Shown in pieces: positions 2,600-29,918 of a stretch of DNA of 64,000 nucleotides. Below the pieces are notes generated by a model, which saw nothing but the letters and a program-made list of their open reading frames with translations, was not told the origin of the DNA and ran no database searches. How positions within the stretch are numbered: position 1 is the stretch's first letter; every line of letters begins with the position of its first letter. Source of the stretch: a virus. Location: IMG/VR virus record IMGVR_UViG_3300022777_000031, positions 10,204 through 74,203 of that record, one strand, 5' to 3'. A program made the translations under genes and the position numbers.

Positions 2600-2703
2600 C
2601 TTATAACTGCGTGATACGGCACGCATTTCGTTCGAGATTTCGAAAAGAACCTGCTTCGGCGGTGCCGTATCATCGTCGCAAGTGGGTTCTTTTTTTATGA
2701 CAC
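2600..2703 (+). promoter_or_regulatory. Structured leader A of a GIY-YIG gene (interlocked P1 helix plus terminator)
   Basis: TATAAC box, then TGATACGGCAC 2612-2622 / GTGCCGTATCA 2662-2672, and AAAAGAACCTGCTT 2643-2656 / AAGTGGGTTCTTTT 2680-2693 followed by a T tract. Confidence 0.7.
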
Positions 2704-2711
2704 AAGTTCTG

Positions 2712-3398
2712 ATGTCAGATAATAGATTTTACCTATACGGCCTATTTTACGAGAATGATCAAAATGAGAGTATATGTTTCTATATCGGAAAGGGAATCGG
2801 GTATAGAATAGATGAACATTTTACGTCTCCGAGAAAAGGAAACAACACATATAAGGATAACAAAATAGAAAAGTTAAAAAACAAAGGAAAAACACCCTTT
2901 GGAGTAAAGCTAGTTGAAAATCTTACTAACAAAGAAGCCTTACATTTAGAACAGAAAATACTTCGCAGAGATAAAGTGTTTTCTGAAGTAACGAACCTTA
3001 CAAGAGGGGGAGAAGGTTTAGCTGGATACAAACACAGTGAAGAAACAAAGCTTCAGATGAGTAAAAGTAGAAGTGGAGAAGATCATCACTTCTATGGAAA
3101 AGAAAGATCTGCAGACTTCAAGGAAAAACTTTCAGAAACGATGAAGGGAAAGAGAACCGAAGAAAATCACCCTTTATGGAATGAAGAAGTTAGTGAAGAA
3201 AGAAGGAACAAAATATCGGAAAATGCGAGTGGTGAGCAAAACGGAAACTCCAACCTGTCTCGTATTGAAGCTAAACAAATAAAAAACCTAGCGAAGGAAG
3301 GTAAAAAAACTCAAAAGAAAATAGCTCGCGAGTTTGGTATTAGTCCTTCGCATGTAAGCGACATCAAGCGAGGGCGCAGGTGGTCGTGCCTTGAGTAG
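2712..3398 (+). CDS. Free-standing GIY-YIG (LEM-3-like) homing endonuclease with NUMOD3 repeats and C-terminal HTH
   Basis: FYLYGLFY..CFYIGKGIGYRIDEH, E..LHLEQ..TNLTRGGEG, GYKHSEETKLQMS; AT-rich; alternative start 2697. Confidence 0.85.
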   Translation: MSDNRFYLYGLFYENDQNESICFYIGKGIGYRIDEHFTSPRKGNNTYKDNKIEKLKNKGKTPFGVKLVENLTNKEALHLEQKILRRDKVFSEVTNLTRGGEGLAGYKHSEETKLQMSKSRSGEDHHFYGKERSADFKEKLSETMKGKRTEENHPLWNEEVSEERRNKISENASGEQNGNSNLSRIEAKQIKNLAKEGKKTQKKIAREFGISPSHVSDIKRGRRWSCLE

Positions 3399-3418
3399 CT
3401 ATCGCTACTCATTTCGTT

Positions 3419-4240
3419 TCATTGCTTACGAGACTTGTACTTCAGCCCAACGTCAAGCCGGTCGGTAAGCTGAACGACGACGCACCCCCGATCAAGGGAA
3501 AGGTAAGTGCGGTAGGCGTCTTCGGGAAAGGCTGACTGAATGGGATCGGTTTGCTGAATCCCCGGAAACTCGAATTTTCGTTTCTCCCGTTCAAGCAGTC
3601 CTTCTTCCATTGCCGCATGTTTCCAGCGGTGAATCGTCGCTTTGCTTCGATCAAACCGACCTGCGAGAAATGAAACGCTCAAATCATTTGGCGAATGCGT
3701 TTCTCCGTGTCCTGGCTTATAGAAATGCCGAGCACTGCCCGTTGATGTGTGCGTCGCATTTTTTCGCACTAAGGCAAACTGGCGATTCGCTATGATTTTC
3801 CCAACAGAGACGGAGAAAAGCACCGCTTTCATTTTGCGTTTCGACTCCACGCAGAACGGCACTCCGATTTGATGAACAGTTGAAGACTCGACGCCCACTT
3901 GGTTCAGAAGGTAAGAGAAGGATCGCACGTAAAGGCGATCTCCATCTGTCCCGAGCCAACCGAGTTCAAACAGTCTTCGGATCTTCCGCTCGGCGGTCCG
4001 GCGAGTCTTCCAACCGCACAACCCACGGAGGCTGTCCTTCAAGTCGGGCGTTACCTCAAAATATGCGCCGTTGCCGTCGGCCACGCACTTGAGAGCAAGC
4101 AAGACTCGAAACTCGTCTGCAAGCCCTTGGCGCAGCACTTCTTCGGCCAGGCGGGTGTTTATGTTGAGGTAGCGGTTGTTCATTGCGCTTTTTATATAGC
4201 CACCGGATACCCCAAAATATGCCCGCCTGGCCGATTTCAT
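3419..4240 (-). CDS. Putative HTH DNA-binding protein (possibly replication-related)
   Basis: 273-aa basic ORF; HTH-like LSVSFLAGRFDRSKATIHRWKHAAMEEGLL. Confidence 0.55.
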   Translation of the reverse strand: MKSARRAYFGVSGGYIKSAMNNRYLNINTRLAEEVLRQGLADEFRVLLALKCVADGNGAYFEVTPDLKDSLRGLCGWKTRRTAERKIRRLFELGWLGTDGDRLYVRSFSYLLNQVGVESSTVHQIGVPFCVESKRKMKAVLFSVSVGKIIANRQFALVRKNATHTSTGSARHFYKPGHGETHSPNDLSVSFLAGRFDRSKATIHRWKHAAMEEGLLEREKRKFEFPGIQQTDPIQSAFPEDAYRTYLSLDRGCVVVQLTDRLDVGLKYKSRKQ

Positions 4241-4298
4241 CTCGGTTTCAGCGCTTCATAGACTCTTGACATACTCTTCGGGGCTTCTTCACAGATGA

Positions 4299-4330
4299 AA
4301 GCGAACTTTTCTCAATCTGAGCTATATAAT
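4299..4330 (+). promoter_or_regulatory. Promoter-like motif, copy 1 (AAGCGAACTTTTnTCAAnnTGAnCTATA)
   Basis: 24/28 identical to 4967-4994; followed by TATAAT. Confidence 0.55.
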
Positions 4331-4355
4331 ATGATCCAAAATATGAAAGATTACT

Positions 4356-4940
4356 ATGATTTACGCTTTAGTCAAAGATGAGCCGAAGTATGTGGGACGA
4401 ACAACCCGCTATTTATCTGGACGACTTTCGCAATACAGATATAACGTTCGGAATAAACGAGTAAAAACGACTGCAGGACAATGGATGGAAACGTTTGAAG
4501 ATATGAGTGAAGTTGATATTGTTTTGCTTGAAGAAGATCCCGACGACGAATAGACAGCCGAGTTGTGGTGGATGGATTACCTTGAATACCTTGGTGCTGA
4601 CCTTGTAAATGAGTATAGACATAGGTTCGGAAACACAGTGGAAAAGTCAGATGGTTGGGATGTGCCCGAAGAGGCGAAACAGATGATGGGGGAGATTTCG
4701 GATAAAAAGGTTGCTGAAAATCACGACGTGAGTGATGCGACGGTGAATAGACATAGGAACAGACTGAACATCGATCCGGCTTATCAGCCCGCCAAAGGTT
4801 ATGATATTCCGAAAGGGTGTATTGAGCAGCTTGGGGAAGAAAAAGATGAAACGCTCGCCGAGCGATATGGCGTTGGGGTAAGACTTGTGAAACACCACCG
4901 ACAAAAAAGAGAGATCAGTTCCTTCAACAGTAGTTCATAG
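4356..4940 (+). pseudogene. GIY-YIG endonuclease with two C-terminal HTH repeats, split by an in-frame TAG (4551-4553)
   Basis: MIYAL..KYVGRTT..RLSQY and LLEEDPDDE*TAELWWMDYLEYLGADLVN read as one continuous GIY-YIG domain. Confidence 0.75.
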
Positions 4941-4966
4941 TCTTTTTTCTCTTTCTTCATAGAGTG

Positions 4967-4996
4967 AAGCGAACTTTTTTCAACTTGACCTATACC
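4967..4996 (+). promoter_or_regulatory. Promoter-like motif, copy 2
   Basis: Near-identical to 4299-4326; no credible ORF follows. Confidence 0.5.
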
Positions 4997-5000
4997 TAGT

Positions 5001-5200
5001 AGTGCGTCTAATGATAGAGTAAACTCGCCTGATGACAGGCGCATAAAGTTGGTTACGATTGACATATCATGCGGATCGGCGCAAGTGCGTGGTTAAGAGC
5101 GTACACATCAACGCTAACCGATTCGCGCCAATAAAAGGGCAAAACACTTTCAAGTATTCCCTGCACCTCTGCTTGAAAGCTTAAAGCCCCATGACGTAGA
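5001..5200 (+). ncRNA. Candidate structured non-coding RNA
   Basis: ORF-less region between a promoter-like motif and a terminator; nested stems GGCGC/GCGCC, GGTT/AACC, AGCGT/ACGCT, GGGC/GCCC, CTTTCAAG/CTTGAAAG. Confidence 0.3.
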
Positions 5201-5235
5201 AAAAGGACGGCTGCTCGTCGGCGGCCGTCCTTTTC
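5200..5235. terminator. Bidirectional intrinsic terminator
   Basis: AAAAGGACGGC...GCCGTCCTTTT with A and T tracts, between convergent units. Confidence 0.75.
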
Positions 5236-5244
5236 GTGTTTGTG

Positions 5245-5469
5245 TCAGTTTTGGCGCTCCATGATGCGTTCGATGATTCCGGCCATAACGCTTTGCTGTT
5301 CGATGTCCTCGACCTCAAAGCCTTTGTTGATTTGGTCGCTGATTACCTTTTTCTGGCGAACGAGATCAAACATTTCCCGATCAATCGTGTCGTTGGCGAG
5401 CAGGAAGTAGACGTTCACCGAGTTCTCTTGCCCGAAGCGGTGAGTCCGGTCTTCGGCTTGCTCAATCTC
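5245..5469 (-). pseudogene. Orphaned second copy of the SNF2 helicase 3' end (74 codons plus TGA, no start)
   Basis: Translates EIEQAEDRTHRFGQENSVNVYFLLANDTIDREMFDLVRQKKVISDQINKGFEVEDIEQQSVMAGIIERIMERQN; 43/74 identical (hand count) to the last 75 aa of 6335-9136. Confidence 0.9.
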
Positions 5470-5470
5470 C

Positions 5471-6211
5471 CTATATCATTTTTTTAGTGATTTCATCCGG
5501 CGGTTTTGATTTTCCTTTTACTGACTTTCTTTCCTTTCTGTCTGCCAATCTATAACAATAGCTACGTGATATGCCATAAAGGTCTGCTATGTTTTTTACT
5601 AGCGTTTCGTTGTCGTATAGCCATCTGATTTCCTTTACGTCTTGGTCGGTTGTTTTTCTTGACCTTGTTTTTTTGTATATGGCTGACTTTTTTTCTTCAT
5701 AGTTTTCATACTTTTTACCTTCATACCACTCGGGTTTAGTTTTTCCATCAACGTGTTCCCATGTCTTTCTTTTGTGTATGTTTAACACTCCGTCTACTCC
5801 ATATTTTTCTTGAAGCGATTTTGATTTCATATCCGAGTGTTCAACCAACCATCGTATTTCTCTTACGTCTTTTCTATTCAACTTGCTTAGATGTTGATTT
5901 TCACCTTTGGCTACAGTTCTTTTTTCGTCTTCCATAATCTGGTTAGTAAGATTTTCTATACCGATTTCTTTTATAAGCTTTGTTTCTTTTCTTATGGCTT
6001 CGGATTCGGTAAGGTTTGTGATTATTTTTTTGGCGTAAGGTTGTTTACCGTTTCTTCGGAGTTTTTTGATTTTTCTTCTCTTATGTGTGTTTTCTACTTC
6101 TTGTCTTTCATATTTGTATAGGTGTTCGTTAAGCCTATATTTTGTTCCTTTTCCTATATAAAAACATATTTCATTTCCGTAAAAAAGTCCATATACATAA
6201 TAATCATTCAT
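5471..6211 (-). CDS. Free-standing GIY-YIG (LEM-3-like) homing endonuclease with tandem HTH-like modules
   Basis: YYVYGLFY..CFYIGKGTKYRLNEH..ESEAIRKETKLI..LTN; paralog of 2712 and 29139; AT-rich. Confidence 0.85.
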   Translation of the reverse strand: MNDYYVYGLFYGNEICFYIGKGTKYRLNEHLYKYERQEVENTHKRRKIKKLRRNGKQPYAKKIITNLTESEAIRKETKLIKEIGIENLTNQIMEDEKRTVAKGENQHLSKLNRKDVREIRWLVEHSDMKSKSLQEKYGVDGVLNIHKRKTWEHVDGKTKPEWYEGKKYENYEEKKSAIYKKTRSRKTTDQDVKEIRWLYDNETLVKNIADLYGISRSYCYRLADRKERKSVKGKSKPPDEITKKMI

Positions 6212-6339
6212 TGGTCCGGTTTCAACCTAGAGTTCCAGTAAAAAAGCCTGCTTGCCGTAGCACCGGACCAGGGCGATTTAGCAAGCAGGCTCTTGTTGCG
6301 TTTCGTAAGTGATTTTTGGTCCGGTGTCACATCATTATA
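6212..6339 (-). promoter_or_regulatory. Structured leader B (promoter, P1 helix, terminator, anti-RBS)
   Basis: Minus strand: TATAAT 6339-6334; CACCGGACCA 6326-6317 / TGGTCCGGTG 6270-6261; AGCCTGCTTGC 6291-6281 / GCAAGCAGGCT 6255-6245 plus T tract; ACCGGACCA repeated directly before ATG 6211. Confidence 0.75.
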
Positions 6340-9136
6340 TATCATGTTTTTCCATGACTTTTTCTACGATTCCTGCTTCTATCGTTTTCTGTTCAACTTC
6401 TTCAGTGGAGATTCCTTTATTGACTACATCTGTAATCATCTTCTTTTTGTTGATTAGCTCCCACATCCATTCGTCTATTGTATCTTCAGCAAGTAGGAAG
6501 TATACGTTCACCGAGTCTTCTTGGCCTATTCTATGTGTTCTGTCTTCAGCTTGAACTGTTTCTGCCCAAGTCCAAGGGATCTCCACAAACGCAACATTGG
6601 AAGCTTCGGTTAAAGTAATTCCGACTCCACCAGCTTGAATGTTGAGCACAAGCAAGTCGTGTTCGCCGTTTTGAAACTCTTCAACGATCTCTCCACGACG
6701 GTCTGCATCCACGCTTCCTGTGATCTTTGGGCAACCGAACTCTTCTGCCAGCGCTTCGGTCGTGTCTGTGTAGTGGGCGAAAAGCAGTAGAGGCTCGCCG
6801 GATTCGGTGAAGTTGCGAATCCAGTTCTTCGCTTCTTTGTATTTTCCTTGACTTGTGACTTGCCGCAGCTCATTGATTTTTACGAGGTGTTCGGCGTTCA
6901 TGGCACGGCGTACCCTTGCCTCTGCGTGGCGCTCCATATGCGCTTCCTTGAGCGGCTCTGACAGGTGCTCAATTTGCTTCCGAAACTCGTCGTCGTTTTT
7001 GTATTTCTTCCGCAAGTGATCTGCCAAGTTTTCCTCCACGTCTTCATACTTGCTTCGGTTATCAATCTCAAGCTCGACGGTGGTGCGCTGCTTATCGGGA
7101 AGTTCATCAAGGATTTCGTCATCTTCTTTGTTTCGCCTTACGTAGCAGTTTCCCGTGAGCCGTTCGTGGAGTTCATCAAGATTTGAGGCTCCAGAGATGT
7201 CCCACCTTCCGAACTGAGACTCTTGGCGGTTGCAGTAGCGTTCTGTAAACTGCATCCATCCTCCAAACGTGTCTTTGAACACGCCCAAGATTTTGAGCTG
7301 ATTGATAATCTCGCTTGGCTGGTTGATGACAGGCGTTCCCGTAAGAAGAATACGGTAAGGGATGCCTTTGGAAATCTTCCGTACGGCTTTACTTCGCTTC
7401 GCAGAGTTGTTTTTGAGCTTGTGGCTTTCGTCGCAGATAATCGCGCCAAAGTCTTTCTCCTTGAACTTTTCTGTGAACTTGTAAACCAAAGAGTACGTGA
7501 CGATGTTCACGCTTCCACGAAAGTCCGTGTGGTTTCCACTTTTTATCGTTTTCACTGCACGGCGAGGGATCCACGTGTTCCACTCTTTTTCCCAGTGGCT
7601 TCGCACTGCAGCGGGAACCACGCAAAGCACAGGGTAGGCGTCAAGGTGCTGAACGGCGCCAATCGCTTCAACAGTGTTGTGCGTAACCACGTAGTCATCG
7701 GTTACGTAAAGACTGTCTCCCGCTTCAACAGATATGCATTGGGCTTCTTCGGTCCCGACTTTTTCTATGCTTTCTATCGTTCTGCACGGCGGTCCTTGTG
7801 GATCTTGAAGTTTCTCTTTTTTCCGATCAAGACGGAAGGGCTCCATATCAAGAGGAAGTTTTGCGTAAACCCTATGTCGGTCTTGACCTTTTTTCTTTTT
7901 GCCATTATAAGTGTATGTGGCTTCGCATGTATGCAAGCTTGCAGTTCCTCCGAGAGAACGAACCATTTCTTGAACGTCTTCGGAAAGCTCTTTTGAAGCA
8001 GAGCTGAAGGTTACGCCGCTTCCTTGAATAGAACCATCCGTGTCAAATAGTCCTTGAAGAACTGCGAGACGAACTTGTGGCGTTCCGTATTTGTATTTGT
8101 CGGGAACGAACTTGTGTTCGGAGTTTTTCAACAATCCCCCTTCACGAAGTGCAGATTGAACGATGTTTTCTTCGGTTCTTTCTCCGTAGGTCACATTATA
8201 GTCATATCCAGATGCGTGAGAAAGAGAAGTTTTTTCGGGTAGAGACGTTTCAAGTTCTTCAACAAGTTGTTCGTCCTGTGAAGAAAATCTAATGTGTTCT
8301 TTTCTCAATGAACCATCTCCGATAAGCAATCCGAGAGCATAGGGATCAATGTTGTACTCTTCGCTTCTATCAAACTTCACAGGTTCTTTAATGAGTGGAG
8401 CAAACCATTTCTTATTTTTGTTCTCTCCGTTGTAGCGAAGATCGCCGATCAGCTCTTCGGTGGTTTTGATTTTGTGGTATCCTCGGTTACGGCCATTGTT
8501 TGTTTGCACGTGCCAAAGGTGTTCTCCACAAGCACGGGTTTTTGCTCCGTGAGAAAATGTGATTTCGTATATTTCTTTTTCACCTTGAGGATATACGCCA
8601 GTGACCTTTGTTGGATTTCCGTCGCGACCGATCACTTTGTCACCGGGTTGTATGTCTCGCATTTTTTTCCAACCTTCCGGAGTGAGCACTTTTGCGTCAA
8701 GGGGTTGCGCTTTCCCCAGGCCCATTTCGTCACCGATAATGACCCGCTCGTTTTTCTCAATGTACTCGACGGCAGCCCGTTGGTACTCGCGAAGTTGCAT
8801 TCCTTTCGCTGTGCCGTATACACGGTCAAGGCTCGACTTTGCTCCGGTGGCGAGAGTCCGGTTGGTTTCTTCTCGCTTTCGCTCTTCCTCGAACTCTTCT
8901 CGAAGCTCTTTGATCATGTTCTCGATCTGGTCCGGCAAGGTATCGACGCCGAACTCGTTGCAGAAGCTCAGAAACTTCGCGGCGTTCTCGCGAGTATTGA
9001 GTGGGATATGCCAATCTTCCGAGTCCGGTTGGTAGTCTCTGCCGGGAATCTTCTTCACGGCGTTGACCTTATTCCAACTGAAGTCGTCGGAGAAGTTGAC
9101 TTTTACCCACTCTTTGTTGATACGTGAAAGTTCCAT
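6335..9136 (-). CDS. SNF2/SWI2-family (HARP-like) helicase containing an intein
   Basis: LREYQ, GDEMGLGK|T, DESH, LLTGTP and QAEDRTHRIGQ motifs. Confidence 0.92.
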   Translation of the reverse strand: MELSRINKEWVKVNFSDDFSWNKVNAVKKIPGRDYQPDSEDWHIPLNTRENAAKFLSFCNEFGVDTLPDQIENMIKELREEFEEERKREETNRTLATGAKSSLDRVYGTAKGMQLREYQRAAVEYIEKNERVIIGDEMGLGKAQPLDAKVLTPEGWKKMRDIQPGDKVIGRDGNPTKVTGVYPQGEKEIYEITFSHGAKTRACGEHLWHVQTNNGRNRGYHKIKTTEELIGDLRYNGENKNKKWFAPLIKEPVKFDRSEEYNIDPYALGLLIGDGSLRKEHIRFSSQDEQLVEELETSLPEKTSLSHASGYDYNVTYGERTEENIVQSALREGGLLKNSEHKFVPDKYKYGTPQVRLAVLQGLFDTDGSIQGSGVTFSSASKELSEDVQEMVRSLGGTASLHTCEATYTYNGKKKKGQDRHRVYAKLPLDMEPFRLDRKKEKLQDPQGPPCRTIESIEKVGTEEAQCISVEAGDSLYVTDDYVVTHNTVEAIGAVQHLDAYPVLCVVPAAVRSHWEKEWNTWIPRRAVKTIKSGNHTDFRGSVNIVTYSLVYKFTEKFKEKDFGAIICDESHKLKNNSAKRSKAVRKISKGIPYRILLTGTPVINQPSEIINQLKILGVFKDTFGGWMQFTERYCNRQESQFGRWDISGASNLDELHERLTGNCYVRRNKEDDEILDELPDKQRTTVELEIDNRSKYEDVEENLADHLRKKYKNDDEFRKQIEHLSEPLKEAHMERHAEARVRRAMNAEHLVKINELRQVTSQGKYKEAKNWIRNFTESGEPLLLFAHYTDTTEALAEEFGCPKITGSVDADRRGEIVEEFQNGEHDLLVLNIQAGGVGITLTEASNVAFVEIPWTWAETVQAEDRTHRIGQEDSVNVYFLLAEDTIDEWMWELINKKKMITDVVNKGISTEEVEQKTIEAGIVEKVMEKHDI
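7676..8710 (-). mobile_element. Class 3 intein (345 aa) with LAGLIDADG endonuclease, in the helicase Walker A motif
   Basis: GLGK|AQPLDAKVLTP...VVTHN|T; Ala1 plus W (EHLW), C (AQCISV), T (VTHN) triplet; LGLLIGDG and LQGLFDTDG motifs. Confidence 0.88.
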
Positions 9137-9233
9137 AAGGGCGCAGTTGTGGTCTGTCTTTATGTTCTTGCTCTTTGATATATATCACTGAGCGAACGTC
9201 AACTGTCACACAAGGCCGCAAACACAAAGTGAA

Positions 9234-10562
9234 ATGGCTAAAAAGATTAAGTTCCCGAGAGGACCGTTCCTTGACCCGGACGTAGAAAATCCGCAGGAAC
9301 TGGACCGAGAGAAGATTGGCAAATCCGACCTGCTTCCTGTGAAGGGAAACACGCCGTTCGGCCGATACGATAACGACCCGAAGTTTCGGCGTCACGCCAA
9401 GAAGTTCACGATGTGGGCGGCACGCAGGCTTGGTTGGCCCGAAATGTCAATCGAGATCTCTGAGCACGACTTTTACGCAGCACTCGAAGAGGCAATCGAC
9501 GAGTTTAGCCGCCTTGTGGGAAATCAGAACATCGAAGACAACCTTGAAGCAATCCTTGGCTCTGACGCCGACAGAGACTTGACCGGCCGTTGGGTTTCTT
9601 CTGGCGGGGTTGGACAAAACGTTCAGCTTGCCAAAGACTACGGCTCGCCGGTTGCAGGAGGCGCAGGAGGAAACGTCAACTTTCATAAAGGCTTCATTGA
9701 CTTGGAGAACGGCCGTCAGATCTACGACAAAAGCGAAATCAAAACGTCAATCGAGACCTCGGAAGACGAATTCGACTTTGTTTCTCCAGACGAAGAGATT
9801 GTTGTGTATCGGGTGTTCCACGAAGACGTGCCGTCAAGCGTGTATGGGTATTACAGCGGCGCATACGGCGGGGGCGCAGGATATGGGGGAAGCCGTGGCA
9901 TCGGAATGAACAGCCATTTCAGCGGCTCAGGACAGGCAATCCAACGCTCTAAACAGTTTACGCTCAAGCCGCTTTATGACACGGTGCTTTCCATTCAGGA
10001 CTACGAGCTTCACGAAGATCTTTTCGAGAGCGATTACAGCTTCGAGATCATCGGGGACAAGATCAAGATTTTTCCAACTCCGCATCACGGCGGGTTCGGG
10101 GGGCACGGGCGAATGAGAGTGTGGGTTGAGTTTGTGTATGCAGACGAAGCGCTTGGAGTTGAAGTCATTGGAGACTCCACAGCGAGAGCAAGTGCTGATG
10201 AAAGTATTGACAATGTAATCAGCGACTACTCCGACGCGCCTTACGACTTCATTCCGTACCGCTTCATCAATGCTCCGGGTGAGGTGTGGATTATCAAATA
10301 CGGTTTGGAAGTCGCCCGCCACAAGCTGGGAACTGTTCGCTCAAAGTTCAGCGACACCCCAAGTCCACAGGATCCGTTTCAGCTTGACGGTGAAGACCTC
10401 AAGCAGGAAGCGCAAACCAATATGGAAACGCTCGTCGACAACCTGAACGAGCAACTTGACCAGCTCAGTAAGGAAGAGAGGCTTCGGCGCAAAGCCGAGA
10501 ACGCAGAAAACTTGAACAAGGTGCTTTCGAAGGTTCCAATGCTCATATACCGAGACAACTAA
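9234..10562 (+). CDS. Neck protein (T4 gp13-like)
   Basis: RRLGWPEMSIEI and KLGTVRSKFSDTPSP..LDGEDL patterns; first gene of the neck/tail block. Confidence 0.7.
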   Translation: MAKKIKFPRGPFLDPDVENPQELDREKIGKSDLLPVKGNTPFGRYDNDPKFRRHAKKFTMWAARRLGWPEMSIEISEHDFYAALEEAIDEFSRLVGNQNIEDNLEAILGSDADRDLTGRWVSSGGVGQNVQLAKDYGSPVAGGAGGNVNFHKGFIDLENGRQIYDKSEIKTSIETSEDEFDFVSPDEEIVVYRVFHEDVPSSVYGYYSGAYGGGAGYGGSRGIGMNSHFSGSGQAIQRSKQFTLKPLYDTVLSIQDYELHEDLFESDYSFEIIGDKIKIFPTPHHGGFGGHGRMRVWVEFVYADEALGVEVIGDSTARASADESIDNVISDYSDAPYDFIPYRFINAPGEVWIIKYGLEVARHKLGTVRSKFSDTPSPQDPFQLDGEDLKQEAQTNMETLVDNLNEQLDQLSKEERLRRKAENAENLNKVLSKVPMLIYRDN

Positions 10563-10578
10563 CAACAATAATAACAGT

Positions 10579-12429: not shown

Positions 12430-12439
12430 CCAAAATGTA

Positions 12440-21904: not shown

Positions 21905-21971
21905 GCAAAAGCAAAAAACAGTTACACAAACGGTTTACATTTTTCCGTTTGAAACACAATAACAATACAGT

Positions 21972-24743
21972 ATGCCTATTGACCTAAGAGAAACGGTTAC
22001 GGATCCAGACACAGGAAACTCGCGCACGGGAAATCTATTTGAAAGTGAACTGGCGGTTCAAACCGTGGGTTCATCTGAAATCATGGAAAATCGTGCCGTT
22101 CTCGAAGGTGAGCTGACCACATTCACCCCGGATGCTTTTGTCGACAGCGACGCCGAAGTGCTCTTCTATTACGCCGAGCAAGGAAACGCAGTTGATAGCA
22201 ACGAAGTATCGGCTGGAACTCTTGGTTCTACAGGAACGTTCACCACAGAAGTCACAGGACTCACTCAAGAAACCACATACGAGTTTCAAGCCGCCGTTCG
22301 AATCGATAATGACGAGGCCACCGGTTCTGTTCAAACCCTCACGACCGGCCTCTTCACGATCACAACGACAGCGGCAACGAACGTCACTGACGCGGAAGCA
22401 AAGCTGAACGGCGAGTTCACGGAAGTCTCTGGACTTGACGCGAACGACTACACGCCTTCCTTCGAATACAGGGAAACGGGAACTGGAAGCTTCACAGAAA
22501 CCACACTTACCGTAAACTTCAGTGATCCAAGTCCTGGCGACTCATTTTTCCTTAATATCGATGCGCTTTCAGGTGGCACTGAGTATGAGTTTCGAGCAAA
22601 AGTTGAAGGACTTGGGGAAACCGAAGAAGGCGGCCTTTTGACCTTCATCACAGAAAACATTGGGGTCACGACACTTTCTCCAACCGGCGTTGAAGCTCAA
22701 GAAGCGACTCTTGAAGGTGATATTACCGAAATCCAAGGACCAACCAGCGTTGACTATCGGTTTGATTGGGGAACTTCGGGAAACCTTTCGAACTCTACGA
22801 ATTCTACGACGACATCAAACACAGGACAGGTTTCTGAAACGATTACAAACCTTGATGCTGACACGACGTATGATTATGAACTTGTTGTCACGTCACCGAA
22901 CGCTACATACAATGGCGGGACAGCTCAGTTCCAAACCGAAGACGCTGCCGTAAGCACGGCGTCTGCAACAGGCACCACGTCTGGAAGCGCAACGCTCAAC
23001 GGAAATGTTGATGCTCTTGCTTCTGGATTTAACACGATTGACGTTGGGTTTGAATACCGAGAAGCGGGAACAACCAACAGCTTCACGACTCTCGACGCAG
23101 GAACATTAGGTGGAGTCAACAACTTCTCGGCTTCAATTAGCGCTGGAACACTTTCAGAGAACACTCAATATGAGTTTCGAGCAACGGGAGCGGTTGGAGG
23201 AAACACGTTCCAAGGATCGCTTGAAACTTTCACGACGCTTGACGAAACGGTTGCCGTCGACACGGTTGCCGCTACTCAACTTGGGGCAACTCAAGCAACG
23301 CTCAACGGAGATGTGACGACCTACGATAACGTCGAGTCTGCTAACGGATTCTTCGAGTACGGACAAACCAGCGGAAGCGTTGACGACAACAGCACGACAA
23401 CACAAAGTATCAACAATACCGGCGGATTCTCTGAAACTGTTACTGGACTCTCTGCGGGAACAGACTATGAGTTCCGAGCAGTGGTTGACACGCTTCAAAC
23501 AGAAACGACGGGATCTGCTGTTGGATTTACAACGGATGCGGTTGCTGTATCGACGAATGCGGCAACCAACGTCGGAACTGGAAGCGCCGACTTGGAAGGA
23601 AGTATCGACGAGCTTGAAAGTGGGCAAAGCGCAGACGTTCAGTTTGATTGGGGAATCGATGGAAATAATCTTCCGAACACGACGTCAACAACAACGGGAC
23701 TTTCTACCGGACTATTTGACGAAACGATTACAAGTCTCACTCCGGGAGAGACCTATGAGTTTCGCGCTACAGGAACTGAGCCAAACAGTGGAGACACCGA
23801 CCAAGGTTCTGTCATGACATTCACCCTTGATGATCTTCAGGTTTCCACAAACTCTGTATCAGTCATTAGCGACACAGACATTGACTTTACAGGCGAGATC
23901 ACTGTAAACGAAGACGGCGGCTCCGCAGACGTTGGCGTTGAGTATCAACAGACGGGCCAGAGCGGATTCAACAACTCCACGAGCGCAGGCACCGTGTCCG
24001 GTACGGGAACATTCAGCGGAACGATTACTGGACTTACGGCAGGTATAGAGTATGAGGTTCGAGCATTTGCTGAACTTGATACAGGGCGCGTTACTGGATC
24101 TACACAAACGGTAACGACTCTTGAAGTCGGCGTCACGACTGATGCAGCAACCACCATAAACGTTGGATCTGCTACGCTCAACGGAACGCTTGACGCTTTG
24201 GGAGCTAGCGAAAATGACGCTGCAGTTTCGTTCGATTGGGGTCTATCGTCCGGATCTGTTGACGACAACAACGTGACCGCTGATCAAAGTCCGGTGTCTC
24301 CGGCTCCAGCATCGTTCGACACTGAAATCACTGGACTTGACCCAGATACGGAGTACCAGTTCCGAGCGCAAGCGACAGGAAACCCATCCGGCGACGTGGC
24401 AGAAGGAAGCACTCTCACGTTCACGACGGACAACGTTGCGGTTTCCACGACAACGAACGTCACAAGCGTCACGACATCTAGCTTCACAGTGGAAGGAGAT
24501 CTCACGACCTTCACTGGTGACAACGACGTGACGATTGGACACGAGTACGTGACTTCAGGTGGATCCTTCTCATCTAATGGCACGGATGTAACGTCTTCCT
24601 CCAGTCCAACGCAGTCCACGGGAACATTCACCACGGACATTACAGGGCTCAGCTCTGGCACGTCCTACGATTACAGGGCGTTTGTGGAGGTGGATGGAGT
24701 TCGAATCAATGGAACAACTGAAACCACAAGCACGAACTCATAA
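21972..24743 (+). CDS. Fibronectin type III-like repeat protein (fibre/decoration/adhesin)
   Basis: About nine ~95-aa Thr-rich repeats of T..AT.V....A.LNG...F.(Y/W)....ITGL...T.YEFRA. Confidence 0.8.
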   Translation: MPIDLRETVTDPDTGNSRTGNLFESELAVQTVGSSEIMENRAVLEGELTTFTPDAFVDSDAEVLFYYAEQGNAVDSNEVSAGTLGSTGTFTTEVTGLTQETTYEFQAAVRIDNDEATGSVQTLTTGLFTITTTAATNVTDAEAKLNGEFTEVSGLDANDYTPSFEYRETGTGSFTETTLTVNFSDPSPGDSFFLNIDALSGGTEYEFRAKVEGLGETEEGGLLTFITENIGVTTLSPTGVEAQEATLEGDITEIQGPTSVDYRFDWGTSGNLSNSTNSTTTSNTGQVSETITNLDADTTYDYELVVTSPNATYNGGTAQFQTEDAAVSTASATGTTSGSATLNGNVDALASGFNTIDVGFEYREAGTTNSFTTLDAGTLGGVNNFSASISAGTLSENTQYEFRATGAVGGNTFQGSLETFTTLDETVAVDTVAATQLGATQATLNGDVTTYDNVESANGFFEYGQTSGSVDDNSTTTQSINNTGGFSETVTGLSAGTDYEFRAVVDTLQTETTGSAVGFTTDAVAVSTNAATNVGTGSADLEGSIDELESGQSADVQFDWGIDGNNLPNTTSTTTGLSTGLFDETITSLTPGETYEFRATGTEPNSGDTDQGSVMTFTLDDLQVSTNSVSVISDTDIDFTGEITVNEDGGSADVGVEYQQTGQSGFNNSTSAGTVSGTGTFSGTITGLTAGIEYEVRAFAELDTGRVTGSTQTVTTLEVGVTTDAATTINVGSATLNGTLDALGASENDAAVSFDWGLSSGSVDDNNVTADQSPVSPAPASFDTEITGLDPDTEYQFRAQATGNPSGDVAEGSTLTFTTDNVAVSTTTNVTSVTTSSFTVEGDLTTFTGDNDVTIGHEYVTSGGSFSSNGTDVTSSSSPTQSTGTFTTDITGLSSGTSYDYRAFVEVDGVRINGTTETTSTNS

Positions 24744-25105
24744 TGAGCGAAGGCGACAGAAAGACAACGGCGGCCGCTTCAATCGGAAGAGCGATTGGCG
24801 GCCGCCGTACGTATTCCGGTACCATGAAGTGGTGGCGTGCCCACAATCATAAAGATCTGGAGTGGCGCGTCCAGCTCAAAACTGATGACGGCCACCTTTC
24901 TTTGATGGTGAAACCCGCTGAAGCAGGCTTGAGCGGAGACAAAATCGAGTTTGACGCTTCCGACTCGTTTCCGACATTCAAAAGCGAGGCGGGGGACATT
25001 GAATACGAAAACGCCGAGCAGTTCGTCGGTGCCGTCGCCGATCTTGCCAAAGAGCAAGAGCTTCGTGAAATCGTTCGGCGTGAAATATCTTCACTTCTTC
25101 TTTGA
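24743..25105 (+). CDS. Hypothetical protein with C-terminal LREIVRREI module
   Basis: Coupled to the previous stop. Confidence 0.6.
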   Translation: MSEGDRKTTAAASIGRAIGGRRTYSGTMKWWRAHNHKDLEWRVQLKTDDGHLSLMVKPAEAGLSGDKIEFDASDSFPTFKSEAGDIEYENAEQFVGAVADLAKEQELREIVRREISSLLL

Positions 25106-25177
25106 GAAACAATCTCCTCTTCACAGGCATACAACAGGGTGAATAATACTTATAATCGCAGACACACCCTCTTTTTT

Positions 25178-25717
25178 ATGCCAATAACCAGTTCAGGCGC
25201 TCGCTTTGAACGAGAAGTTGGAGACCACATTGAAACAGTTTTTCCAAACGTTCAACGTTTCCAGCGCCGAAAAGACGGCGACTATCTTCTTCAAGAGGTA
25301 GATGAGTCCGGCGACTTCAATCAGCTCAAGTCGGCCTCTCCAAACCAAATCACGCTTGTTCGAGAAGAAGTCTATCGCACCAGGCGAAGCAGGCAGTATA
25401 GCCGTGCCCGAGACAAGCGCGTCGACTGGCGCCTTGTGTTTCCCGATGGAAGTGACTTCATGATTGAGTGTAAGCATCAAAGCGTGAGCGGAAGCGTCGA
25501 CGAGAAGCTTTGGGAAGGCATCCCCAACCGCTTGGCAGACCGAGACTATTGGGCAGATTACTTCATGCTCTTCGTTTCGGGAAAACACGTCGATCAGGAA
25601 GCGGTGAACATCTTGCAGGAGATTTACGAAGAGAAAGCCGACAGGCAGGTGCTCGTGACAAAGGATTGGCAAAGCAAAATCAACCAGCTCAGTAATCTAT
25701 ATGGGCAAGCTCGATAA
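25178..25717 (+). CDS. PD-(D/E)XK restriction-endonuclease-like protein
   Basis: VD..LVF..FMIECKHQSVSGSVDEK; TATAAT box just upstream (~25151-25156). Confidence 0.65.
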   Translation: MPITSSGARFEREVGDHIETVFPNVQRFQRRKDGDYLLQEVDESGDFNQLKSASPNQITLVREEVYRTRRSRQYSRARDKRVDWRLVFPDGSDFMIECKHQSVSGSVDEKLWEGIPNRLADRDYWADYFMLFVSGKHVDQEAVNILQEIYEEKADRQVLVTKDWQSKINQLSNLYGQAR

Positions 25718-26645
25718 GGCTACATTTCTTCAAGGCGACGCCAAAACCGAACTTCGAAGTCTCGATGAAGGTTCTGCTCGAACCTGCATCACGTCCCCTC
25801 CATATTGGGGACTTCGCGATTATGGAACCGAAGACCAAATCGGGCTTGAGGAAGAGGTTGATGCCTACGTGAACAACCTCTGTGACATTCTCGACGAGGT
25901 TGGGCGAGTTCTCACGGACGACGGAACCCTTTGGCTCAACATTGGCGACAGCTACGCAGGAAGTGGCAAAGGACCCGGCGGAAACATCAACAAAGAGCAC
26001 CACCACATGGAAGACAAAAGCGGTGGGCTCGTTCCAGACGGCATGAAGCCAAAGGATCTTGTGGGCATTCCTTGGGAGGTTGCTTTTGAGCTTCGCAGTC
26101 GCGGTTGGTATCTGCGGTCGGATATCATATGGAAAAAACCCGACCCGATGCCAGAAAGCGTGAAAGATCGGCCGACAAACCAGCACGAGTATCTTTTTCT
26201 TCTGTCAAAGTCTCGTGACTACTTTTACGACCACGACGCCATAAAAGAAGACGCCAAACACGCCGACGACCGACGCCACGGAGAAGGCCGGATCGGTTAC
26301 AACGGAAAGCGTCAAGGCGATGAAGGCACAGGGCAAGAGGCGTTTGTGTCCATCAAAGACCGCCGCAACAAACGAAGCGTGTGGGACGTGACGACCGCTC
26401 AGGTGTCCGAAGCTCATTTTGCGGTGTTCCCGTTGGAGCTGGTCGAGCCATGTGTTTTGGCTGGCAGTGAGGAAGGCGACATGGTGCTTGACCCGTTTGC
26501 GGGTTCAGGAACGACGGGCATCGCCGCTTTGAAACACGGCCGGAAGTTCGTTGGCGTCGACCTCAACAAAGAGTATATTCAAATCGCGAAGGATCGCATT
26601 CGAGGTCACAATGAAGTTCCTGTGAACCACGGATTTTGGTCTTGA
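25701..26645 (+). CDS. DNA N4-cytosine/N6-adenine methyltransferase (beta class)
   Basis: TSPPY motif, HFAVFP, VLDPFAGSGTT SAM-binding motif. Confidence 0.92.
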   Translation: MGKLDKATFLQGDAKTELRSLDEGSARTCITSPPYWGLRDYGTEDQIGLEEEVDAYVNNLCDILDEVGRVLTDDGTLWLNIGDSYAGSGKGPGGNINKEHHHMEDKSGGLVPDGMKPKDLVGIPWEVAFELRSRGWYLRSDIIWKKPDPMPESVKDRPTNQHEYLFLLSKSRDYFYDHDAIKEDAKHADDRRHGEGRIGYNGKRQGDEGTGQEAFVSIKDRRNKRSVWDVTTAQVSEAHFAVFPLELVEPCVLAGSEEGDMVLDPFAGSGTTGIAALKHGRKFVGVDLNKEYIQIAKDRIRGHNEVPVNHGFWS

Positions 26646-26711
26646 CGTTTTGCCAGAGAACGCTTATATTGCCTTGTGAGGGCATTCAATCAATAATCTA
26701 AGCCATACCAT

Positions 26712-26897
26712 ATGTCTGCGCTTGGAAACCGAGACAACTTCGACCAGACGGCCAAGGAAGAGACTGACACAGGCACGCGCATTCGAATCGAGGCTCTTCG
26801 CTTTCTGAGAGAAAATGAGCCCGGACAGTTCGAGATGCTGAAAGAAGACTTGGAGGGGACCGACATTTGGCAACGTTTCCAAAAAGAATACGGATAA
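26712..26897 (+). CDS. Hypothetical protein
   Basis: 61-aa ORF with native codon usage. Confidence 0.5.
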   Translation: MSALGNRDNFDQTAKEETDTGTRIRIEALRFLRENEPGQFEMLKEDLEGTDIWQRFQKEYG

Positions 26898-26898
26898 C

Positions 26899-27069
26899 AT
26901 GAAGACGTTCAAGATCGTGACGCCAATGTACAGCACCGCTCGCACGTACGAGGCCGAATACTCTGAAGTGCTTCCCGGCGGCGTTCTTCATCTTTACAAC
27001 ACGAACGAGAAGAACCAAATCAAGACGGTCGCTTACATCGGACCACCATACGACGCCAACGTTTCATAA
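26899..27069 (+). CDS. Hypothetical protein (56 aa, below the track cut-off)
   Basis: MKTFKIVTPMYSTARTYEAEYSEVLPGGVLHLYN...; fills the gap between flanking genes. Confidence 0.5.
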   Translation: MKTFKIVTPMYSTARTYEAEYSEVLPGGVLHLYNTNEKNQIKTVAYIGPPYDANVS

Positions 27070-27076
27070 CAAAGTT

Positions 27077-27277
27077 ATGGAAGCTTTCTTTTCTGCGATA
27101 GGAGCAATCCTTTTTCTGACCATTTCGTTCGGGTTTTACTTCATTCCGACTATTGTCGCCGTGATGAGAGATCATGACAACATGGCGCCAATCATTATCA
27201 TCAACGCATTTTTGGGCGTCACGGGAGTCGGTTGGGTAATAGCGCTTGCTTGGGCGTTTACGAACCAGAGTTCATAG
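27077..27277 (+). CDS. imm: Superinfection immunity membrane protein (T4 Imm-like)
   Basis: YFIPTIVA..R.H.N...IIINAFLG.TGVGWVIALAWA. Confidence 0.85.
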   Translation: MEAFFSAIGAILFLTISFGFYFIPTIVAVMRDHDNMAPIIIINAFLGVTGVGWVIALAWAFTNQSS

Positions 27278-27353
27278 GGTGTTCACGAAACAATCTTCGG
27301 TTGGCTGTGGTTCAACTACTGCATTGTAAGAAGAACCAACCAACCGACTTGCC

Positions 27354-28292
27354 ATGAAAGATTTCGGTACGTATTATGGCGTCGCGAAAGGCGGAGCCGT
27401 CGTGAACTCTTACGGAAAGCCTGCTCCAGGCGGCCCTTCGGACTGGCGCGTTACAAGTGAAAATCGAATCTCCGATCCGGTTGCTGGCCACTCCAATGCC
27501 AGCACGAACTACGACTGGATGCGGAAGAACTTGATGGAGACTCGCGACCACGAGTTTGTGCGCGTGGACTTCGCCATCGATCCGGTTGACTTTTCTCGCC
27601 TTTCTGACGAAACGCTCAAGGCTGAGAGAAAAAAGGCAGCCGATAAGCTCAAAGATGAAGAGCGGGAAGCCGTTGAGCGGAGAACAGGGATGAACCTTTC
27701 CCGCATCAAGATTGACAACTCGGTCTTTGATGCTCCCGATGGCTACAAGTTCTACGGCATCGCCCTCTACGACTTCGACGAAGAAACTTTCCTTTCGTCC
27801 AGCGGCGAAGAGAAGTCAAGCTGGAGAAAGGGCGGCGTTCTCAAGCGACCGAACAGAAACTCCAGCGGACTCCGGGTGTTTCCTTCCGACGCACGCAAGC
27901 TCCTGGACTTGGCCGAAGAGAAAGAGGGTCGCCGAGTCGTGAAGTTCTTGGCGAAGGTTGAATCGGCCGATCCCGAAGAGCTTGAAGAAAACGCAGAAGA
28001 AGGGCGGCTCAACTCCGCAAAAGAGAAGCTGGATGACGGAGAGCTTGAGGCGCTTGGCCTTTCACGGGAAGAAGAAACGGTGGACGACGGCACGGCGAAT
28101 GAGTGCCGGTACGACGAGCCGTGGCAGGGAGAATGTGGAAAGCCCACGGTTTCGGGTAGCGACTTCTGTGAAGAACATCATGGCCGCCTGTGTCGAGTGT
28201 GCAAAGATCAGGCAACCAGAGGATGCCCCCACGCCGGATCGTTAGTTTGCGGCGCTCCACTTTGCGACGACCACAATCATTCTCACCACTGA
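27354..28292 (+). CDS. Hypothetical early protein with C-terminal Cys/His zinc-binding cluster
   Basis: C..CGK..FCEEH..C..C..C..C..LCDDH. Confidence 0.7.
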   Translation: MKDFGTYYGVAKGGAVVNSYGKPAPGGPSDWRVTSENRISDPVAGHSNASTNYDWMRKNLMETRDHEFVRVDFAIDPVDFSRLSDETLKAERKKAADKLKDEEREAVERRTGMNLSRIKIDNSVFDAPDGYKFYGIALYDFDEETFLSSSGEEKSSWRKGGVLKRPNRNSSGLRVFPSDARKLLDLAEEKEGRRVVKFLAKVESADPEELEENAEEGRLNSAKEKLDDGELEALGLSREEETVDDGTANECRYDEPWQGECGKPTVSGSDFCEEHHGRLCRVCKDQATRGCPHAGSLVCGAPLCDDHNHSHH

Positions 28293-28294
28293 AT

Positions 28295-28621
28295 ATGATT
28301 CAAGAACTCTTTCTTCAACTGGACGACGACTCCACGAGTCCATACAACATTCGAGCAACGGCGCAAATCGAACCGGGTCCGAAAGATCCCGAAGAGCTGT
28401 ACCGCATTCATAAAAACGTGTGGGCAAGCGGCCAGGACCTAAAGTTTGACGCCGTGTTCTACCCGAACCACGTTGAGATTCTTTCGGCTGAAGGTTCGGT
28501 GGAGATTGGGCGGTTCACTGACGACACGTATTCCCGATCTGAAGACCTCGAAAGATACCTCGACTCGCTTGAGCAGCAGATTCGCGAGGCAAACGAACAG
28601 CAGAGTATGAAGACTGTGTAA
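28295..28621 (+). CDS. Hypothetical protein
   Basis: MIQELFLQ start follows the previous stop. Confidence 0.6.
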   Translation: MIQELFLQLDDDSTSPYNIRATAQIEPGPKDPEELYRIHKNVWASGQDLKFDAVFYPNHVEILSAEGSVEIGRFTDDTYSRSEDLERYLDSLEQQIREANEQQSMKTV

Positions 28622-28657
28622 AGACCGTGGTGACTCGAAACTTTGAGTGCGCGTGCG

Positions 28658-28677
28658 CGTGTAAGCTACTGCATTAT
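28658..28677 (+). promoter_or_regulatory. Conserved early promoter motif CGTGTAAG-N4-TGCATTAT, copy 1
   Basis: Exact bipartite match, intergenic, followed by a CAACCAACC leader and ATG. Confidence 0.75.
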
Positions 28678-28703
28678 AATCGCGACCAACCAACCGACTC
28701 GCC

Positions 28704-29012
28704 ATGTCTGACGATAAGCAGTGGACCGAAGCCGAAATCAAAGCAAACCTTCGCAAGTACGACAAGTGGGTTGAGAAGGCGATTGTCGCGATCTACGACC
28801 TGCAAACGGAGTATGAGAAGCGTGCGCACGGCACGAATCGTGACAACAACGTAGGCTTCAACAAGGTCGACGCCGGTTTTCTGAGCGACCTTGCGGAGTC
28901 CTACAGAGAGTACGGCGGGCTCACTGAGGCTCAGATCGACGCCGGCCGTGACGCGATCATGAAGTATGCGGGGCAGTTGAAGATGTTGGCTAATGGAGAA
29001 CTTGAAAGTTGA
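28704..29012 (+). CDS. Hypothetical early phage protein
   Basis: 102 aa, downstream of the promoter motif. Confidence 0.7.
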   Translation: MSDDKQWTEAEIKANLRKYDKWVEKAIVAIYDLQTEYEKRAHGTNRDNNVGFNKVDAGFLSDLAESYREYGGLTEAQIDAGRDAIMKYAGQLKMLANGELES

Positions 29013-29020
29013 AGTTGATA

Positions 29021-29138
29021 TATAATAACAGAGCGGTAGGACGCTTATAGAATTATTAACACCCTGTGTACCTATGCGCTCGTCCTACCGCTCTGGTACA
29101 CAGGGTTTTTATATTGAAGCAAACTAAATAGTAGGACG
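29021..29138 (+). promoter_or_regulatory. Structured leader C (promoter, P1 helix, terminator, anti-RBS)
   Basis: TATAAT 29021-29026; CAGAGCGGTAGGACG 29029-29043 / CGTCCTACCGCTCTG 29081-29095; ACCCTGTGTACC 29061-29072 / GGTACACAGGGT 29095-29106 plus T tract; GTAGGACG repeated at 29131-29138 before ATG. Confidence 0.8.
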
Positions 29139-29918
29139 ATGGGTAAATTTTATGTGTATGGACTTTTTTATGAAGATGAAAATGAAGAAAGCGTATGTTT
29201 TTATGTTGGAAGCGGAACTGGAAATAGGAAAGAACGACATTTTAGAGAAGGGGTAATGAAACACTGTACAAACTCATACAAAGTTAACAAAATAAAGAAG
29301 CTCCGTAGAAACGGTAAAAAATTATACGGTAAAAAACTGGTTGAAAATTTAGGTGAAGATAAAGCAAGAAAGTTAGAGCAAAAGCTACTTGATAGAGACG
29401 AAGTTTTTAATAACACCACAAACCTAAACAGAGCAGCAACTGGCTTTTCTGGAAAAAATCACCCGACTAACGGTGGAATGTCTGAAAGCCATAAAAAGGC
29501 TTTAAGTGAGTCTTTAACAGGAAGAACTCTTTCTAAAGAACATAAATTAGCACTATCTGAAGCGTTGAAGGGACACGAAGCTAGTGAAGAAGAGAAAGAA
29601 AGAATTAGGCAATCGCAACTTGGAGATAAAAACAACGCCAAAGACCCCGAAGTAAGAGAAAAAATAAGTGAAACTTTAAAAGGAGAAGATGTGGGAAGTG
29701 ACAACCCCCAAGCAAAATTTAATCGGAAACAGATAAAAGAAATACGGCGGCTATGGAACAACGAAAAATGGAAGCAGTATAACATAGCCGAAAAATATGA
29801 TTGTTCGCAACGGACGATAAGCAAAATTGTACGGAACATATCATATTGGGATGAAAATTATGAAAATAGGAGAGGAGAAACGATAACACACGACGAAATC
29901 AACGAGCGGCGGCGATAG
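29139..29918 (+). CDS. Free-standing GIY-YIG (LEM-3-like) homing endonuclease with NUMOD3 repeats
   Basis: FYVYGLFY..CFYVGSGTGNRKERH; MSESHKKALSESLTGRTLSKEHK; AT-rich. Confidence 0.85.
   Translation: MGKFYVYGLFYEDENEESVCFYVGSGTGNRKERHFREGVMKHCTNSYKVNKIKKLRRNGKKLYGKKLVENLGEDKARKLEQKLLDRDEVFNNTTNLNRAATGFSGKNHPTNGGMSESHKKALSESLTGRTLSKEHKLALSEALKGHEASEEEKERIRQSQLGDKNNAKDPEVREKISETLKGEDVGSDNPQAKFNRKQIKEIRRLWNNEKWKQYNIAEKYDCSQRTISKIVRNISYWDENYENRRGETITHDEINERRR

Follow-up and report, generated by a model that had tools for sequence, protein, structure and literature searches.

Mobile GIY-YIG homing endonuclease genes of a myovirus-like phage carry a covarying leader RNA that may throttle nuclease expression

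GIY-YIG endonuclease genes and their upstream leaders

A 64-kb part (hereafter the window, to which positions refer unless indicated otherwise) of IMG/VR virus record IMGVR_UViG_3300022777_000031 carries three GIY-YIG homing endonuclease genes, each of which is preceded by a leader containing a promoter-like box, interlocking helices and a terminator hairpin, and this leader is very probably a selected RNA structure of the endonuclease cassette. Endonuclease A (228 amino acids (aa); 2712..3398, + strand; start set by homologue alignment), endonuclease B (246 aa; 5471..6211, – strand; with 82%-identity homologues at the same locus) and endonuclease C (259 aa; 29139..29918, + strand) are paralogues of 39–46% identity, each combining a LEM-3-like GIY-YIG domain with NUMOD3/HTH modules (i.e., PF22945, NUMOD3 and HTH_3 in endonuclease A). 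This identity and these domains bear out a first-pass annotation of the window, which had proposed three paralogous GIY-YIG genes at 2712(+), 6211(–) and 29139(+). A fourth GIY-YIG cassette is located just outside the window (G000:C1:1717-2576, corresponding to L101:318-1177, with its leader at L101:318-427) and encodes a 249-aa protein of the classical I-TevI-like type (MIYGL...YVG).

Leader B starts with the promoter-like box GATATATAAT (6334..6343, – strand), which overlaps the stop codon of the preceding helicase gene and is invariant in the relatives L005, L006 and L022. It continues with element a, i.e., the 5′ strand CACCGGACCA of a helix P1 (6317..6326, – strand), the 3′ strand of which (6261–6270) constitutes element a′ in the loop of a terminator (6240..6293, – strand; arms b at 6281–6293 and b′ at 6243–6255, with a T6 tract at 6240–6245). 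A third element, a″ (ACCGGACCA; 6212..6220, – strand), abuts the ATG at 6211. Leader C is built likewise on the + strand, with the same box GATATATAAT (29017..29026), element a as the P1 5′ strand (29029..29043), element a′ as the P1 3′ strand (29081–29095) in the loop of the terminator (29061..29110; arms b at 29061–29072 and b′ at 29095–29106, with a T5 tract at 29106–29110), and element a″ (GTAGGACG; 29131..29138) abutting the ATG at 29139. The TATA boxes, helices and T tracts annotated earlier in all three leaders were found at the positions claimed, and so were the exact copies of the P1 5′ strand in front of the ATG of gene B (6212–6220; 13/14 identical to the P1 5′ strand when flanks are included) and gene C (29131–29138). 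The statement that the leaders have no sequence in common was too strong, as the 11-mer TGATATATAAT is common to leaders B and C (and to the type D leaders described below).

Leader A departs from this plan, so that the proposed architectural equivalence of the three leaders does not hold. Its promoter-like box TATACTTATAA (2596..2606, + strand) precedes a 5′ hairpin termed HP1 (2608..2625, + strand; stem TGCGTG/CACGCA), the loop of which (ATACGG) is its element a, and a terminator hairpin (2643..2696, + strand) with apical loop CCGTAT (2665–2670) as element a′ and a T7 tract (2690–2696). The two helices initially annotated, i.e., P1 (2611–2622/2662–2673) and P2 (2643–2693, followed by T7), are indeed present. 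Because the terminator is a long hairpin of ~22 base pairs (bp), however, this P1 is really a 6-nucleotide (nt) loop-loop contact (ATACGG/CCGTAT). Moreover, homologue alignment places the start codon of gene A at ATG 2712 and not at ATG 2697, and the weaker match proposed over the latter is not borne out, as there is no significant copy near either ATG (at most 4 bp with the 12 nt preceding the ATG). A double lock, involving a strand opposed to the ribosome-binding site (anti-RBS) in addition to the terminator, is thus unsupported for leader A.

Four copies of the 9-mer TACTTATAA are present in the 86-kb record, all of them on the + strand (window positions 2598 and 25147, and window-equivalent positions –8649 and 75288), and the three copies other than that of leader A are situated 30–33 nt before the ATGs of ordinary genes. 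The leader box is probably a phage promoter, and TACTTATAA probably marks a class of promoters different from that of the early motif GTGTAAGC..TGCATTATCA.

Two leader classes among the relatives

The endonuclease family comprises 119 clusters (50% identity, E below 1e-10), and upstream DNA of homologues was taken from ENA, JGI, Logan and IMG/VR contigs. The comparable two-helix topology expected upstream of homologues was found in 13 sequence-distinct leader versions, which fall into two architectures. Class I comprises leader A (winA), the leader of the fourth cassette (L101), and those of L015 (also L019), L020, L021, L023 and L087, while class II comprises types B, C, D (L024), E (L075/L078), F (L079) and G (L098).

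A class I leader consists of a box (e.g., TATACTTATAA), a 5′ hairpin (6–9 bp with a 6–7-nt loop), a linker of ~20 nt and a terminator hairpin of 17–22 bp, the 6–7-nt apical loop of which is the exact complement of the 5′ hairpin loop, followed by a T tract. The AUG lies 14–19 nt past the terminator stem, and an anti-RBS copy is absent. In leader A, the L101 leader and the five relatives alike, this complementarity between 5′ hairpin loop and terminator apex covaries and the terminator is located near the start codon. The fourth-cassette leader carries the kissing loops ATACAGG/CCTGTAT on a scaffold almost identical to that of L023. Throughout class I, no consistent anti-RBS match could be found around the start codon or early in the coding sequence, and a 7-nt candidate in gene A (ATACGGC at +24 to +30) was not reproduced in relatives.

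In class II, the box is followed by strand a (10–15 nt), a linker of 16–31 nt, and a terminator composed of a 5′ arm, an 8–10-nt linker, a′, a 0–5-nt linker, a 3′ arm and a T tract. An A-rich spacer of 29–38 nt then leads to a″ (8–9 nt), which ends 0–5 nt before the start codon. The segment of a′ matching a″ is positioned in the middle of the 21–25-nt terminator loop, and element a extends the complementarity of a″ as far as the terminator stem.

In the 64-kb window, a covariance model of class I (R1) detected leader A (E = 0.003) and, weakly, leader C (E = 0.04), with no further matches; the model also matched type D. Further members were sought by several scans. No match was obtained with a protein pattern in 185,579 prokaryote genomes; viral contigs yielded one weak relative with a protein query, and the true relative L017 plus one spurious match with an alignment query. 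A pattern of the class II box plus the motif following the terminator gave 49 matches, all of them chance occurrences in AT-rich viruses, and a pattern of the class I terminator apex gave 18, with L087 as the sole true member. In Rfam 15, the window matched no family at gathering scores, and a permissive search of the three leaders returned chance-level matches only (E of at least 0.1).

When the whole 86-kb record was scanned for perfect interlocked helix pairs, the leader sites were among the longest. When the terminator loop was shuffled, its pairing with the upstream 60 nt proved significant (p ~0–0.01) in each of 10 independent leaders. The corresponding test on the 12 nt preceding the start codon gave p = 0.0015–0.045 in five class II families, and no signal over shuffled loops in class I leaders. 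Nested folding, which is unable to display both helices, chose the terminator in leader B and P1 in leader C, and the energies of the P1 and P2 states were similar.

Covariation of the leader helices

Structural covariation upstream of homologues is present in every helix, and the pairings of all 13 versions are maintained by compensatory changes or by G-U pairs confined to the sense strand. In class I (6 sequences), pairing extends to 99% of the cells and 15 pairs show changes on both sides; these values are attained in 0/500 shuffles, and pairing in slid controls is 32–50%. The kissing helix has 6/7 of its pairs changed on both sides and all its cells in Watson-Crick pairs, and the hairpin homologous to HP1 of leader A covaries in the class I relatives as well.

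Within class II, four variants of type B have P1, P2 and a′:a″ paired in all cells. Specifically, P1 is kept via G-U pairs and one compensatory change, the terminator shows one G-C to C-G swap along with G-U changes, and a, a′ and a″ of L006 all reflect the same G-C to A-U change. All cells are likewise paired in three variants of type C, with two terminator pairs changed on both sides in L013/L017; element a is conserved in L013 and L017, where one C-to-U change retains a G-U pair. Across 11 class II leaders, with pairs counted from explicit segments (a MAFFT alignment across types being out of register), P1 comprises 125 Watson-Crick and 11 G-U pairs, a′:a″ comprises 90 and 3, and the terminator helix P2 comprises 118 and 8, with 0 mismatches in each of the three helices. 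In 6/11 of these leaders a and a″ are unlike each other, yet both still pair with a′.

The deviations that are tolerated are without exception G-U on the sense strand, which points to helices formed in the sense-strand RNA and not to sites in DNA. This sense-strand covariation of every helix substantiates the selected RNA structure suggested by the first-pass annotation, and we hold it very likely that the leader is such a structure belonging to the cassette.

Insertion sites and mobility of the cassette

The record as a whole (86 kb, estimated completeness ~54%) is of a myovirus-like phage with two tail-sheath paralogues. Close relatives are lacking among cultured phages, a nucleotide search of which gave no match, with its distant mode returning one 70-nt piece only. 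Selfish elements are abundant and include a LAGLIDADG intein within an SNF2 helicase, a free LAGLIDADG gene and the GIY-YIG genes, the latter sitting on AT-poor-to-AT-rich islands.

The leaders move with their genes. With a and a″ unchanged, the C-type leader lies downstream of an NT5C gene in L013/L016 and of a gene of 102 aa in the window and in L017; its passage into a different gene context together with the endonuclease agrees with the idea that the leader is part of a mobile cassette. B-type leaders recur after the helicase in relatives, and near-identical class I scaffolds precede two GIY-YIG subfamilies, i.e., the YGLFY type (L023) and the classical IYGL...YVG type (L087 and L101).

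Cassette B is inserted inside the SNF2 helicase gene (6335–9136, – strand; with a LAGLIDADG intein, PF14528, Hom_end_hint) at motif VI. It carries a recoded, AT-rich replacement helicase C-terminus (6338..6550, – strand) covering the last 71 residues, and has displaced the native C-terminus, which persists as an orphan beginning at motif VI, QAEDRTHRFGQ (5248..5466, – strand). Replacement and orphan share 59% aa identity, and their layout is the same in L006–L009, the orphan copy being lost in L005. As leader B follows directly on the stop codon of an essential gene rebuilt by the cassette, a terminator at this position would be doubly useful.

Elsewhere, a class I cassette in L015 (2327–3900; also in L019) splits a PF11860 muramidase gene into parts of 186 aa and 60 aa, which may be the same type of insertion, with a replacement end plus an orphan. 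In their foreign context, the C-type cassettes of L013 (2813–2914) and L016 (818–1003) are accompanied by a short open reading frame (ORF) ending in ..LKFANILII.., which resembles the C-terminus of the 102-aa protein encoded upstream in the window (..LKMLANGELES), so that flanking gene sequence seems to hitch-hike with the C-type cassette. Cassette C itself is flanked by two identical copies of the 12-mer GACGCGATCATG, at 28950–28961 in the upstream gene and at 30014–30025 in a downstream ORF for a small membrane protein; these may be junction microhomology, or may have arisen by chance.

Several other identities were considered for the leaders and set aside. The helices are too long for the P3/P7-like pseudoknot of a group I intron core, a P4–P6 domain is absent, and the flanking gene is complete through its replacement 3′ end. 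A small mobile element with a target-site duplication between a and a″ was rejected, terminal inverted repeats being absent. That a is masked by ribosomes finishing the upstream ORF does not fit the distance from the stop codon of this ORF to a, which varies from 8 to ~80 nt. There is no invariant ligand-binding core across types, as would be expected of a riboswitch, the semi-conserved linker motifs being CTTACGAAAC in L1 of types B and E and AACGC in L2 of types B, D, F and G. Finally, the leaders contain no tandem repeats of the kind found in type III toxin-antitoxin systems.

A model of expression control in cis

What these loci show directly is a set of sequences that are complementary, covary and move together with the nuclease genes. 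We place about an even chance on a reading in which the cassette leader would throttle its nuclease in cis, by termination and, in class II, also by a clamp of the terminator loop on the start codon. Each gene would thus carry a promoter-proximal leader RNA of ~95–125 nt that limits its own expression, and would probably be kept barely expressed by it. The putative phage promoter box would be followed directly by an RNA ending in an intrinsic terminator, and transcription starting at this promoter or arriving from the upstream gene would mostly stop there and yield a short RNA, with the nuclease being reached by read-through alone. Indeed, the order of promoter, structured RNA, strong terminator and gene implies that the short RNA should be the main product and that the nuclease should depend on read-through.

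In this cis model, the apical loop a′ of the terminator would serve as a pairing site. In class I it would kiss the 6–7-nt loop of the 5′ hairpin, and in class II it would pair either with a or with a″ abutting the start codon. The loop:a″ helix, stacked on the terminator stem, would block translation of the read-through RNA, the two together having the layout of a classical H-type pseudoknot on the start codon, while pairing of a with a′ would free the start region, such that a would act as a competing switch strand. No Shine-Dalgarno (SD) sequence was found at the start regions of 35 window genes (e.g., 27354, 28704 and 37571), and the phage gene leaders are A/C-rich and unstructured, often containing CAACCAACC. 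Such SD-less, A/C-rich gene starts point to an SD-independent host, and with SD sequences lacking, access to the start region should decide initiation.

With regard to termination, a G+C-rich hairpin followed by a U tract is present between box and gene, as in intrinsic-terminator attenuators. There is no antiterminator helix sharing the nucleotides of the terminator stem, however, as P1 uses the terminator loop. Because it overlaps the stem by only 0–1 nt, any mutual exclusion of P1 and terminator would have to be steric.

A number of points weigh against the throttle in cis. Promoter activity, termination, masking and the choice between a and a″ are all steps that we infer from sequence. Being the longer strand, a should prevail over a″ at the loop of any RNA containing both, and the clamp would then need a to be withheld, or a:a′ pairing to be sterically limited under a closed terminator. 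Class I is devoid of any a″, and its loop contact is compatible with both hairpins, which leaves no simple antiterminator role; candidate roles for this kissing contact are stability, terminator efficiency, recognition, or action in trans. Moreover, L077 (1–200) and L102 (LR756508.1, 115657–115857), two more distant YGLFY-type homologues (~30–37% identity, one with an N-terminal extension), are without a promoter-terminator leader, so that the module is not universal in the protein family.

Alternative explanations

Rather unlikely, in our view, is that the terminated leader is a cassette-specific antisense RNA acting in trans in the manner of the P4 CI RNA, P1/P7 c4 or IsrK. The short RNA would then show a′ in its terminator loop and target a and/or a″ in read-through transcripts of its own cassette, and the hypervariable a/a′ pair would constitute a private address preventing cross-talk among the four cassettes of one genome. 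The layout does match that of seqA-seqB-seqC of P4, with the downstream site here lying over the start region, and a single promoter giving rise to a terminated small RNA and a read-through mRNA would parallel IsrK (PMC4825925). The succession of promoter and terminator, which makes the short RNA the main product, would suit such a role, and so would the faster divergence of loops than stems on near-identical scaffolds, L023 and L101 sharing 4/14 loop positions vs. 44/52 stem positions (Fisher p = 1e-4). Overall identity is 50% in loops and 77% in stems; that of the unpaired linker, however, is 59%, which is close to that of the loops, so that neutral compensatory drift is possible. Enforced orthogonality is argued against by the similarity between the winA loop and that of the fourth cassette (ATACGG vs. 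ATACAGG), and the presence of both a and a′ in the short RNA should close its loop in cis. We doubt that a/a′ is a private address by which the leader RNA would regulate, in trans, the read-through mRNA from its own cassette or copies in co-infecting genomes. If true, homing-endonuclease cassettes would possess a specificity or immunity system based on RNA, comparable to P4 CI or to plasmid copy-control RNAs, and their loops would be under diversifying selection.

The cassette could also be an antitermination-gated unit like lambda PR′-6S RNA-tR′, with a constitutive promoter and a terminator overridden only in the presence of a phage factor or modified RNA polymerase. The loop contact would in that case serve structure or recognition, and a″ of class II would be a secondary add-on. 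The order of promoter, short structured RNA, strong terminator and gene would fit, and the box is common to ordinary phage genes. A sequence-specific factor would not need a hypervariable loop pair, though, and the strict conservation of a′:a″ pairing would be left unexplained, which makes this reading decidedly improbable.

We consider it highly improbable that class II is a T4-type mask with a second promoter in the 29–38-nt spacer between terminator and a″, from which transcripts lacking a′ would be translated while longer ones would be masked by a′:a″. Precedent exists in I-TevI/II/III, segB and mobE of phage Aeh1 (PMC2988022), and types B, C and E have a –10-like hexamer (TAAAAT, AAAACT or CAAACT) 12–14 nt upstream of the start codon, the hexamer reading TGnTAAAAT in L075/L078. 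These hexamers are weak, however, and none is present in types D and F; the resulting 5′ untranslated region would measure merely 5–8 nt; a would have no role and would in fact unmask long transcripts; and the explanation is inapplicable to class I.

Finally, a, a′ and a″ might act at the DNA level, as operators or homing-site mimics bound by the endonuclease, in line with the autorepression of I-TevI through an operator resembling its homing site (PMC2988022), with the HTH/NUMOD3 DNA-binding modules of the nucleases and with the presence of ACCGGAC in the orphan motif VI region of the window, but this is scarcely credible, as the internal deviations of a from the complement of a′ are all G-U-compatible on the sense strand (no transversion or C-A), two insertion contexts that differ from each other share one a sequence, and ACCGGAC is missing from the orphan copy of L006, the leader of which has changed to ACCAGAC. 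The latter mismatch also led us to reject an origin of a from the homing site.

Comparison with known RNA elements

The P4 CI and P1/P7 c4 RNAs are processed out of a transcript, act in trans in lysogens and cause downstream termination. In the P4 CI RNA (seqA-seqB-seqC), a central segment is complementary to upstream and downstream sites (PMC4825925), and the same holds for a, a′ and a″ of class II, where the central segment is complementary to an upstream site and a downstream translation-start site. In both cases the paired sites are on the same strand of the same transcript, and the complementary blocks differ between related elements. The RNA described here would differ in ending at its own terminator, the loop of which is the central element, and Rfam revealed no sequence or structure homology to the catalogued P4 CI/c4 families.

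The loop-mediated contacts are also reminiscent of riboswitch kissing-loop platforms (guanidine-IV/mepA; cobalamin L5–L13), in which a 5′ hairpin loop likewise contacts an expression-platform hairpin in a manner linked to a terminator or start site. Those contacts are ligand-dependent and involve conserved loops and binding pockets, whereas the leader loops here are hypervariable and no conserved pocket was seen.

In the T4 family, endonuclease genes are controlled by single hairpins that mask the RBS, by internal terminators and by nested late promoters (PMC2988022). The first-pass annotation had taken such simple T4 hairpins as the sole precedent, which is too narrow given that the P4 CI RNA and IsrK share the complementarity or read-through logic (PMC4825925). 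Nevertheless, like the masks of I-TevI, I-TevII, I-TevIII, segB and Aeh1 mobE (PMC2988022), class II places an RNA helix over the translation start of the endonuclease gene, i.e., the 8–9-bp a′:a″ helix ending 0–5 nt before the start codon in types B–G. Terminators and cassette-borne promoters are added layers in both systems, and a selfish nuclease would in both be kept low or late. The T4 masks consist of one local hairpin with a late promoter nested inside, whereas here the putative masking strand is in a terminator loop, a third and competing copy lies upstream, and class I is maskless.

IsrK of the Gifsy-1 prophage has one promoter for a terminated short RNA and for a read-through mRNA that is translationally inactive through intramolecular structure (PMC4825925). 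Alternative pairings that decide translation would be common to IsrK and the cassette leaders. IsrK, however, acts in trans to activate its long form and has an antiterminator gene under its control, and the two have neither sequence or structural homology nor a kissing or terminator-loop pairing in common.

In the literature searched, no terminator loop was found described as a pairing surface with matched upstream and start-codon partners, and the three-way complementarity of class II appears to be a new element.

Significance

Homing endonucleases need expression high enough to spread and low enough to spare their carrier, and how free-standing endonuclease cassettes outside the T4 model have solved this is poorly known. 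The cassettes described here carry with the gene a portable control module composed of a putative promoter, a structured RNA and a terminator, to which one class would add a start-codon clamp. This module is shared by two GIY-YIG subfamilies, and its covariation is strong though no RNA database lists it. For RNA biologists, it offers a compact, mutagenesis-ready system with a terminator loop as a regulatory pairing surface, a three-way competition among a, a′ and a″ and, as a third feature of interest, matched loops that diverge quickly on near-identical scaffolds. If the short RNA were to act in trans, address-coded regulation by RNA would gain a new example among mobile elements.

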